From the IMG/VR virus record IMGVR_UViG_2703718806_000006, positions 1 to 8,482 of that record: a DNA stretch of 8,482 nucleotides, one strand, 5' to 3'. A program made the position numbers. Each line of letters opens with the position of its first letter. The first letter of the stretch is position 1. Origin of the DNA: a virus. Lineage: Duplodnaviria; Heunggongvirae; Uroviricota; Caudoviricetes. Shown in pieces: positions 1 to 3,000 of the stretch.

Positions 1-3000
1 ATGGTCAACCTGACAACCCGGTGCATTTTCTGGAGCAATGGAGGAAGCCCCAGCCATACTTACCGCCGCGCCATTTCGCGGATTGCCACAACCGGAAGCG
101 CACGATCGAATTAAATTTAACGACAAGCCTTATATTCTCGCTGTGCGCTTTCGTGTTATGCCCTGACTTTTCAGGGATATGTTCTTTCAGCAAACTGTCA
201 GTGCCGGATTCTTATCCGTGTCCGGCGCACGACCACACGTGACAGCGTGTTGGTCTCCATCATTAACCCGGAACCTCTATGGAGGATAATATGCAAGTTG
301 ATATTATTAGCCCTGTAACTGATCCATATGCTTGCGCACATCAGGCTCTTCTGGCACTAATCAACGCTGGAAAAATTGAAAATTCCGCTATGTGCTTTGA
401 AGAGTTGAAACAACTTGTGCGCTTGTATGAATATATAAAAAAACAATCACAAGATACGGCGTAATATTTAAAATACTTTCTGTTATATGGGCCTGCTATA
501 ATGCTGGCCCATATTTCTAACCCCTCTATAAGAAAAACATATTATTATGGCAATTTCTTCGGTAGCTCTTCAGAAAGCTGAGTTGTTTTAATTATGGTTT
601 TTAAATAATCATCGCTTTCACATTTGAGTGATTCTATGGCAATCCAGATGCGGGCTTCGGTGCCTGCATTTGGTTCCAGTTGCTGTAGACGTTTTGCATC
701 TTCCAGTAGTAAGGCGATAACGTGTTTCAGCTTCTCATCATTCGCTTGATTCTTGTTTTCAGGCGAATTTTGTCCGCCGAATGGCCACTTTTCTTCGTAC
801 AGCCCGATAAAGGTTCGACGCACGTTACCGGATATATTATCGACGGTTTCTTTTTCTACGGTACTCAGGTCAAGAGTCGCCAGTTGAGAACGAACTATAT
901 TCGCTGCCATTTCCTGGAATGGTACTGGTAAATCTTTAAATTCCATCGTCAACCTCATCAGTCAGTGTTTCTGGCTAACCAGCGACGCGCGCCAGCTTCA
1001 GTTTTAAACGTTTTGCTTCTGGTATACGTCATCGCGGTAAACGTGCCGTCCTGGTTGGGAAACACGCCGCATACCAGAGATTCGTTGTTGCCAAGATTGA
1101 GCGTATCCATGTTGACCTCATTCCCCCTTAACGCCGGGGCGCGGAACTAAAAACCTGCTGCGCTGTTATACAAAGTGTTCCCGCCGTCATGTTCATACGC
1201 CTCGGGCTGGCTACTTACCCCCTTGCCACTGCCGGGTAACTCGAAGTATTGCCCTGCATTCTGTGGGACGGGGTGGGTTGATGCATAAACAATACCACTG
1301 CTATTTAATTATGTAAATAGCAATGCTATTATCATGGCAAGAAAAAAACCACCCGAAGGTGGTTTTTGACAGAAATGATTAACAGCTTTTGTTTGGATAC
1401 TGCCTTCGTGAGTGAACTACATTTACGATCTCGATGTTAGATGTTGTTACTCGGTAAAGTATTATGTAGTTAGGATGAGTCACTATCTCTCGAAGACTTG
1501 GAACTCTTTCGCTCGGTGGGTACAGATAAGGGTGTTCAGTAAGTGACAAAACTGATGTTTCAATGCGTATTTTTAGTCTACGTGCAGCGGGAGGGTTTTC
1601 TTTAGCAATATAGGCTACTATCTGACGTAAATCATCACGTGCAGAAGGTAGCCATAAAATGGGCAGCATTACTCACTCCTGTTCGTTGTAGCTAATTGAG
1701 CAATAAGGTTTTCCATTTCAGCCATTACTTCATCATGCGGAATTCCAGAACGGGGATCTGCGAGGCTTGCTGCCACTTTGGCTCGCAACCATTCGTTATA
1801 GCTGTTTTCTTGTTCGACCGTTTCAAATTCAGAAATTATCGGGGAAAGGGCTGTACTCATGTTTTGACCTCCTCAGATTAGGCGCGACGACTTTTTTGCG
1901 CAGCTAGCCATCGCGCAACGATTTCTTCAATTGATTCTTTTTTCTCCTTCATTTCCTTAAGCATTTTCTCTTTATCTTCTTTGGGGAAAGCCCTGAACGT
2001 CTGGAGCAAATCCCGCTCCATGGGGTCTATATTAAACGGAAGTTCGTTTTCCGATTGTTCCATATCGGCAGATATAGTGACAACATTGTCCTCCCCAGAT
2101 TCTTGGGGATACATCCTTACAATTTGTAACAACTCGGCCATATCTGGTCTGATTGACTCGGGAGGAACTTGCAGTAACCCTGCGAACTTGATAACAGCCT
2201 CAAGATTTAAAGGTGTCTGACCATTTAGATAATGGCTTACAGCTCCCTGTGTCGAAAATCCCAGAATTTCTGCCGCACGCTCTTGGGTTAACCCTAGTTG
2301 ATTTTTTTTCGCCGTCCAGATTTCTTTTAGTCTCTGGGCGGCTTGCAGGTCGATCTCTGACAGGGATTTTCTTTTCATACCTTCAATTCTAATAAGATTA
2401 TTAATCTCTTTGAAATAGTGGTGCTATTTACTTTTAAAAATAACAATGCTATTAATGATCGTGATGACATCACATGAGGTGAACAATGAATCTTGGAGAA
2501 TATTTGCGTTATTCCGGTATAACTCAGAAACATTTTGCTGAAATTGTTGGGGTAACCCAGGGGATGGTAAGCCATGTCATTACCGGGCGGGCGAAACTTA
2601 CGGGGGAAAAAATTTTACGTTGGTGTGAAGCAACTGGCTGGATAGTAACTCCGCACGAGATTGATAGCAGTTCTTATCCCAACCCAACCGACGGCTTACC
2701 TGTCGAGTGTCAGGCTAACACACAACCAGAGACGGGGGTGATTCATGAAAATCAAGCATGAACACATCCGTATGGCGATGAATGCCTGGGCATATCCTGA
2801 TGGTGAGAAAGTTCCCGCAGCTGAAATAGCCCGGACTTATTTCGAGCTGGGGATGACGTTCCCGGAACTGTACGACGACAGCCATCCGGAAGCCCTGGCT
2901 CGTAATACCCAGAAAATTTTCCGCTGGGTGGAGAAGGACACGTCTGATGCTGTTGAAAAAATTCAGGCGCTGTTACCGGCGATCGAAAAGGCGATGCCGC

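Follow-up and report, generated by a model that had tools for sequence, protein, structure and literature searches.

A ydfA-family gene and a predicted fusion of two phage cassettes as exchangeable neighbours in a probable dicBF-type prophage operon

The described systems closest to the locus analyzed here are the dicBF operon of prophage Qin of Escherichia coli K-12 and the immunity region of prophage CP-933P of E. coli O157:H7. In Qin the gene order is ydfA-ydfB-ydfC-dicF-dicB-ydfD, and growth and cell shape were normal when the operon was expressed from Plac with dicF and dicB deleted (PMC5069750); the functions of ydfABC are stated as unknown (PMC5069750, PMC11430063); and the promoter dicBp is repressed by DicA, with ydfA transcripts detected (10.1101/2023.04.14.536235). 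In CP-933P (paaR2-paaA2-parE2, PL933P), the architecture of which is the same as that described below, repression of the PL promoter by PaaR2 and YdaS has been shown experimentally (PMC8630535). Prophage Rac has ydaF, a paralogue of ydfA. The stretch of DNA analyzed, called the window throughout, is 8,482 nucleotides (nt) long (positions 1 to 8,482 of IMG/VR record IMGVR_UViG_2703718806_000006, a virus of the class Caudoviricetes). It contains two adjacent genes on the minus strand, coding for 50 and 133 amino acids (aa), which the original prediction had put forward as a translationally coupled pair and a candidate for an uncharacterised two-gene module belonging to no recognised family. The first gene is a member of the YdfA-YdaF family (DUF1391), a gene family long annotated in K-12; the second is, as its sequence relations indicate, an in-frame recombinant fusion of two common phage cassettes; and by their distribution among loci the two genes stand side by side in an array of exchangeable cassettes and do not form an obligate pair.

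Like ydfA of Qin, the first gene of the two is the first open reading frame (ORF) behind a repressor-controlled promoter and precedes dicF/dicB-type genes, and its product is approximately 86% identical to K-12 YdfA and of the same length. The second gene, a small acidic helical ORF, is of similar size class to K-12 ydfB and ydfC and occupies the same slot, but its product has no similarity to YdfB or YdfC that is recognisable by inspection of the sequences. The window differs from Qin in that its repressor and operators belong to a different immunity type, its leader is different, the gene following ydfA is not ydfB, and the repressor is separated from the leftward promoter (pL) by a PaaA2-ParE2 toxin-antitoxin pair. 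This last feature is shared with CP-933P, which also has the repressor, the leftward promoter, OR-like operators and, to the right, YdaS/YdaT-type genes; the immunity specificity differs from that of CP-933P because the operator consensus differs, being AATAnCAnTGCTATT in the window and of the GTTTAGTAA type in CP-933P. Like the early-left genes of lambda (N, Ral, SieB, CIII and Kil), the two genes are small and located in the pL operon, but they have no sequence relation and no Pfam match to them.

The 901 nt around the two genes (window positions 500-1400) are 99.8% identical to a twin prophage that adjoins potC in E. coli NZ_CP045209 (L001), where the NCBI Prokaryotic Genome Annotation Pipeline (PGAP) gives the gene order as a DUF1391 protein, a 133-aa hypothetical protein, a small antisense ORF, dicB, a DUF1482 gene, an exonuclease gene, xis and int. 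The dicB and DUF1482 parts of the operon are beyond the left end of the window and are annotated in L001; within the window, ydfA is the first gene of the operon. About 50-90 nt past the left end of the window, L001 (10450-10492) has a short dicF allele in which the 5' seed UUUCUGGUGA and the terminator are kept and 17 nt are deleted internally relative to K-12 DicF; this allele was not reported by the Rfam DicF model at E values up to 0.1. The locus is probably the promoter-proximal part of a dicBF-type early-left operon in a Qin/CP-933P-like lambdoid prophage of E. coli, and as such it is an ordinary variant of a known operon that has already been annotated.

The 50-aa ORF exists as predicted and is a real protein-coding gene, because third-position variation dominates among its alleles (variable sites at the three codon positions number 16, 13 and 33) and the ratio of nonsynonymous to synonymous polymorphism (pN/pS) is 0.22 (38 alleles). 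The claim that neither protein matches a family fails for this ORF, residues 2-48 of which match positions 1-47 of the 48 in Pfam PF07151 (DUF1391) at 8.5e-30, with 102.6 bits against a cut-off of 27.3; it also matches PHROG 751 at 2e-35. All 16 invariant and 14 nearly invariant columns found among 23 members, with the core GxF...F T.M..T.S.TFK...A.RWL, are present in the window protein. Identity is at least 78% for the homologues listed from Escherichia, Salmonella and Cronobacter, and more distant homologues (53-67% identity) come from viable phages that infect Escherichia (Bas97), Pantoea, Serratia or Salicola. DNA matching ydfA occurs in at least 1584 of 5426 complete E. coli genomes, in up to five copies per genome. 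YdfA (5.6 kDa, isoelectric point 7.9) is predicted to be soluble, having no hydrophobic segment, and its AlphaFold model is a three-stranded sheet followed by a C-terminal helix (beta-beta-beta-alpha), with a predicted local distance difference test (pLDDT) score of 87. The best match in a sequence search of the PDB was the lambda head-decoration protein gpD (1td0, a beta-hairpin), with an insignificant E value of 0.42. DUF1391 genes are labelled "head-DNA stabilization protein D" in phage records ON470580, ON470595, PV340562 and others; this label is regarded as wrong, and its source may be the weak similarity to gpD.

The second gene had been placed at 545-958, with a start codon overlapping the stop codon of ydfA in the sequence TGATG. 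A mechanical ORF of 137 codons is present at those positions, and one base is common to the TGA (960-958) and the ATG (958-956), but this ATG is not the actual start of the gene: the evidence supports a start at 946, a product of 133 aa and no overlap of the genes. Every homologue in a collection of 5.8 billion proteins begins MEFKDL, and PGAP calls the 133-aa form in the twin prophage. At loci where the gene lies behind ydfC, the in-frame sequence upstream is a stop codon followed by PTRLI-MEF, with no ATG, and at two loci with an internal deletion of ydfA (L022, L023) the TGATG is lost and the second gene is intact. A Shine-Dalgarno sequence, GAGG, stands 6 nt before the ATG at 946, and no comparable site precedes 958. 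The actual order is thus the TGA of ydfA, a second in-frame TGA, GAGG and the ATG at 946, and translational coupling by a TGATG overlap fails, since the supported start comes 11 nt after the stop; coupling by re-initiation across these 11 nt is possible. The junction block ctgactgatgaggttgacgATG accompanies the downstream gene and is also found behind the ydfC variant, as is the junction sequence ctgactgatgaggttgacg; because the block also follows the ydfC variant, it belongs to the downstream cassette and implies no link specific to ydfA.

The 133-aa protein is interpreted as a fusion because its halves match separate sets of proteins and because free-standing genes for its C cassette exist. 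Among 1.84 billion representatives, an exhaustive HMMER search detected 108 relatives, nearly all of which match only one part of the protein, either residues 1-55 or residues ~69-113; whichever part is matched, it forms the N-terminus of small proteins that otherwise differ. Behind ydfC in L154 (2983-3186) is a C-cassette gene of 67 aa that stands alone and can be aligned with the end of the window protein, free-standing C-cassette ORFs of 51-70 aa are located directly behind ydfA at four loci (L158, L161, L163, L164), and such genes elsewhere are 51-71 aa overall. DNA of the full fusion is matched in 168 of the 5426 E. coli genomes (~3%) and any part of the gene in 934, most of these matching in the N cassette only, where the match breaks off sharply at nucleotide 159; related N cassettes are present in phages that convert to Shiga toxin (Stx) 2a production. 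The 21 distinct fusion alleles all keep the reading frame, with a pN/pS of 0.25 (0.20 to 0.35 in each of four segments), and the dominance of third-position variation indicates that both ORFs are more than chance. The absence of a family that had been claimed for this ORF holds for Pfam and NCBIfam, neither of which gave a match, and a PDB sequence search likewise found nothing; it does not hold for PHROG 1363, annotated as being of unknown function, which matches residues 1-123 (5-127 of the 137-aa query) at 1e-41. Partial relatives of the protein, of which the window protein is the fused form, are PHROGs 6937, 2151 and 9419 for the N cassette and 30817, 12693, 32391 and 2982 for the C cassette, all annotated as being of unknown function. 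Extra short helical tails, for example YHxTMVxALxMxIxxLxxxL, are common to proteins led by the N cassette and proteins led by the C cassette (relatives P0088, P0307, P0294, P0257, P0261); because further tails occur behind either cassette, the shuffling exceeds the two cassettes of the window. The protein is acidic (isoelectric point 5.0) and soluble, with no hydrophobic segment, and the AlphaFold model consists of two helical hairpins and a disordered linker, with pLDDT of 80-87 in the N part. A Foldseek search of the PDB with this model found nothing (best E 1.4), and for both proteins no family or fold of established function was matched; to this extent the original description of the pair as being of unknown function is borne out.

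The arrangement of the two genes was counted at 69 viral-contig loci that carry the fused gene. Directly upstream of it is ydfA at 53 loci, and ydfA-ydfB-ydfC in series at 13; one contig begins inside ydfB, and two carry ydfA cut to 15 codons (L022, L023). Downstream of ydfA may be ydfB-ydfC, as in K-12, which is without the fused gene, or an N cassette joined to other tails, a C cassette on its own, or none of these families. The DUF1391 gene of Rac is preceded by ydaG, and that of phage Bas97 is in a rightward operon behind a helicase gene. The proposal of an uncharacterised two-gene module does not survive these comparisons, in which ydfA changes partner freely and two independent cassettes have recombined to make up the second gene. 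A dedicated pair, such as a heterodimer or a toxin/antidote-like module with stoichiometry set by translational coupling, would account for the 11-nt spacing, for the Shine-Dalgarno sequence abutting the stop codon, for the identical junction at most loci and for the frequency of ydfA directly upstream, but it is considered improbable: ydfA is found far more often without the second gene (at least 1584 genomes versus 168), the genes that follow it in K-12 are unrelated, the second gene is found behind ydfC and beside deleted ydfA, the Bas97 homologue is in a different kind of operon, and the same junction block is also found behind the ydfC variant. With respect to a type II toxin-antitoxin system, the partners vary, and no helix-turn-helix (HTH), ribbon-helix-helix or toxin family match and no fold match was found. 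Since induction of K-12 ydfABC without dicF and dicB is harmless (PMC5069750), which also speaks against a toxic pair, a Kil/DicB-like toxic role of YdfA is unlikely.

A connection of the two genes with Kil, SieB, Ral, DicB or defence functions had been suggested by their position, and no match in Pfam, NCBIfam or PADLOC for either protein bears it out. The Pfam families of Kil, DicB, SieB, Ral and CIII gave no match at E up to 1 with either protein or with 30 relatives of the cassettes, a Pfam scan of these 30 relatives gave scattered matches at chance level only, and matches to the PADLOC defence models were at chance level as well (E 0.04 and 0.03, 11-12 bits). The C cassette was considered as an analogue of lambda CIII on account of its similar position before kil/dicB and a weakly similar motif, and was rejected when hhalign returned a probability of 0.2%.

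The pL/OL element that had been predicted upstream of the genes is supported by a pL-like sigma-70 promoter overlapped by both OL operators, and the predicted position of the pair, proximal to the promoter in a repressor-controlled early-left operon of a lambdoid prophage, is likewise borne out at the level of sequence. The element is well supported because the AATAnCAnTGCTATT palindromes recur, at 2414-2428 and 2439-2453 and with the same 25-bp spacing, within the intergenic stretch that separates the repressor gene from a divergent cro-like gene. A promoter downstream of the repressor gene, with operators shared with the repressor/cro region, characterizes the dicBF type, and both are found here. 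Homology among loci in the leader begins at ~1280, and the predicted transcription start is near 1282. By analogy with CP-933P and K-12, it is inferred that the pair is transcribed from pL and repressed by the repressor of the window.

The leader between the promoter and ydfA includes long invariant blocks, for example GTAGCCAGCCCGAGGCGTA and CAATACTTCGAGTTACC, and is kept in phage Evi, which has a gene other than ydfA in first place, as well as at L098 (2501-2658) and many other loci. A coding function is ruled out by single-base indels and frame changes between loci. A structured RNA was also considered and rejected: the fold is no better than those of shuffled sequences (minimum free energy, z +1.5), RNAalifold showed compensatory change in 2 of 33 pairs (covariation term -0.12), and there is no Rfam match. 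The leader contains a 20-codon upstream ORF (uORF), the stop codon of which falls within the ribosome-binding region of ydfA. At other loci the ATG of this uORF is in frame with ydfA, resulting in database calls of YdfA proteins of 77-78 aa; a longer YdfA of this kind was rejected for the window, where that ATG is out of frame, and the sequence of the uORF peptide is not kept between the short form and the form fused to ydfA.

The proximity of ydfA to this strongly conserved non-coding leader, its place as the first gene behind pL (that of N in lambda), the high conservation of YdfA and its basic C-terminal helix (GARRWLARN) would all fit a model in which YdfA regulates the early-left transcript by RNA binding or antitermination in place of N, the 133-aa gene being an unrelated passenger; moreover, the prophage has no annotated N-like gene, yet dicB, exo, xis and int can be reached only by a transcript that gets past the dicF terminator. 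This model has a low probability, given that the leader is present in phage Evi without ydfA, that a gene precedes the DUF1391 gene in Rac and that the Bas97 gene is in another operon, that the ydfA-containing transcripts seen in K-12 include none longer than ydfABC-dicF (10.1101/2023.04.14.536235), and that neither an arginine-rich motif of the N type nor a known RNA-binding fold was found. A further alternative, in which translation matters and not its product, ribosomes shielding the RNA from Rho-dependent termination and RNases for the benefit of dicF, dicB, exo and int while the proteins are largely dispensable and the 133-aa chimera is a neutral by-product of recombination, would suit the free exchange and fusion of cassettes, their presence/absence polymorphism, the lack of phenotype of K-12 ydfABC and the long untranslated stretch that begins only past these ORFs, but is improbable in view of the pN/pS values of 0.2 to 0.35 in ydfA and every fusion segment, which indicate selection on amino acids, the intact frame of all 21 fusion alleles and the retention of YdfA at 53-67% identity in phages of Pantoea, Serratia and Salicola.

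The account preferred, and thought likely to be right in outline, is that the two genes encode independent, exchangeable accessory early proteins of a repressor-controlled early-left operon. In a lysogen, the repressor (1878-2378) would occupy both OL operators over pL and keep both genes silent. Upon derepression, transcription by RNA polymerase would begin near 1282 and run through the leader, ydfA, the 133-aa gene and a long untranslated stretch, followed, if the operon continues as in L001, by the short dicF allele, dicB, the DUF1482 gene, the exonuclease gene, xis and int. Each gene would be translated from its own Shine-Dalgarno sequence, and ribosomes that terminate at the TGA of ydfA, 11 nt from the next ATG, might re-initiate there. 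The 133-aa acidic chain would have originated by a recombination that fused two cassettes circulating independently among lambdoid phages. Both products, being small, soluble and non-membrane and too small for enzymes, would act stoichiometrically by binding macromolecules. YdfA, which is nearly invariant, probably has a conserved partner in host or phage, and the shuffled cassette protein has the look of an accessory function that evolves fast, for example in conflict between phages or between phage and defence. Several points weigh against this account. The C-terminal half of the AlphaFold model of the 133-aa protein is of low confidence (pLDDT ~56-67 in the C cassette and <50 in the linker and tail); the designation of the products as binding proteins is argued from size and fold only, with no functional match found in sequence or structure; the transcription start and repression at this locus rest on sequence and on related prophages; and the identical junction, together with the position of ydfA directly upstream at 53 of the 69 loci, leaves room for a functional link between the genes. 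There is also a slight chance that the N cassette, the C cassette and the further tails are a combinatorial kit, reshuffled by lambdoid phages in early-left operons to produce new small inhibitors, directed for instance at host defences or rival phages, with YdfA as a common partner or regulator; if so, the fusion in the window would be a "Rosetta stone" showing that two cassettes work together.

Table 1. Positions of the two genes, their parts and the surrounding features in the window.
Feature	Position	Strand	Remarks
ydfA-family gene (DUF1391), 50 aa	958-1110	-	Shine-Dalgarno GAGG 5 nt before ATG
133-aa gene (PHROG 1363)	545-946	-	supported start ATG 946; stop 545-547
Spacer, 11 nt	947-957	-	second in-frame TGA and GAGG (953-956)
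N cassette, residues 1-53	788-946	-	predicted helical hairpin
Linker, residues 54-67	746-787	-	low-complexity
C cassette, residues 68-133	548-745	-	
Conserved non-coding leader, ~170 nt	1111-1282	-	75-95% identity across loci
uORF, 20 codons	ATG 1190-1188, TAA 1130-1128	-	invariant ATG; GAGG 9 nt upstream
OL, two 15-bp palindromic operators AATAnCAnTGCTATT	1291-1305, 1316-1330		25 bp start to start
pL-like sigma-70 promoter, TTTACA-17-TATTGT, TG extension	1317-1289	-	consensus scan; predicted start near 1282
Hairpin and T-run upstream of pL-like site	stem arms 1344-1367	-	
ParE toxin gene	1379-1669	-	matches ParE2 of E. coli O157 at 1e-36
PaaA2 antitoxin gene	1669-1860	-	
HTH repressor gene, lambda-CI-like	1878-2378	-	N-domain matches lambda CI at 9e-10
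Stable hairpin	485-514	-	31 nt past stop of 133-aa gene; RNA fold -18.8 kcal/mol, z -2.4
Convergent antisense ORF, 61 aa, acidic (57 aa per PGAP)	279-464	+	converges on 133-aa gene

The remaining features of the region (Table 1) include a three-gene toxin-antitoxin unit (1379-2378, minus strand), consisting of the repressor, PaaA2 and the ParE2-like toxin, in the position held by cI-rexA-rexB. The antisense ORF that converges on the 133-aa gene has no family match and occupies the place that antisense sieB has in Rac. Between it and the 133-aa gene is a stable hairpin in which a clear U-run is absent, at most a candidate terminator. At a distance from these genes, a hok/sok type I toxin-antitoxin locus is located at 7374-7698 (plus strand), with an Rfam sok match of 112.7 bits at 7374-7548 that is overlapped by an ORF (7486-7698), for which the PGAP label in the twin prophage is Hok/Gef family protein.

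What is new here is modest and comprises a corrected start codon, the fusion and cassette structure of the second gene and a catalogue of architectures. A false lead is removed, in that there is no new module of two overlapping genes, and the annotation of the second gene is fixed at a start of 946 and a length of 133 aa. YdfA, annotated ~30 years ago, ranks with the most widespread prophage genes in E. coli, and the question of its function is no more testable from the window than from K-12. The shuffling of cassettes illustrates, cleanly and on a small scale, mosaic evolution within the protein-coding genes of lambdoid phages. If any of the products does inhibit the host or a defence system, this would be relevant to many prophages of pathogenic E. 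coli, including the Stx phages with related N cassettes.

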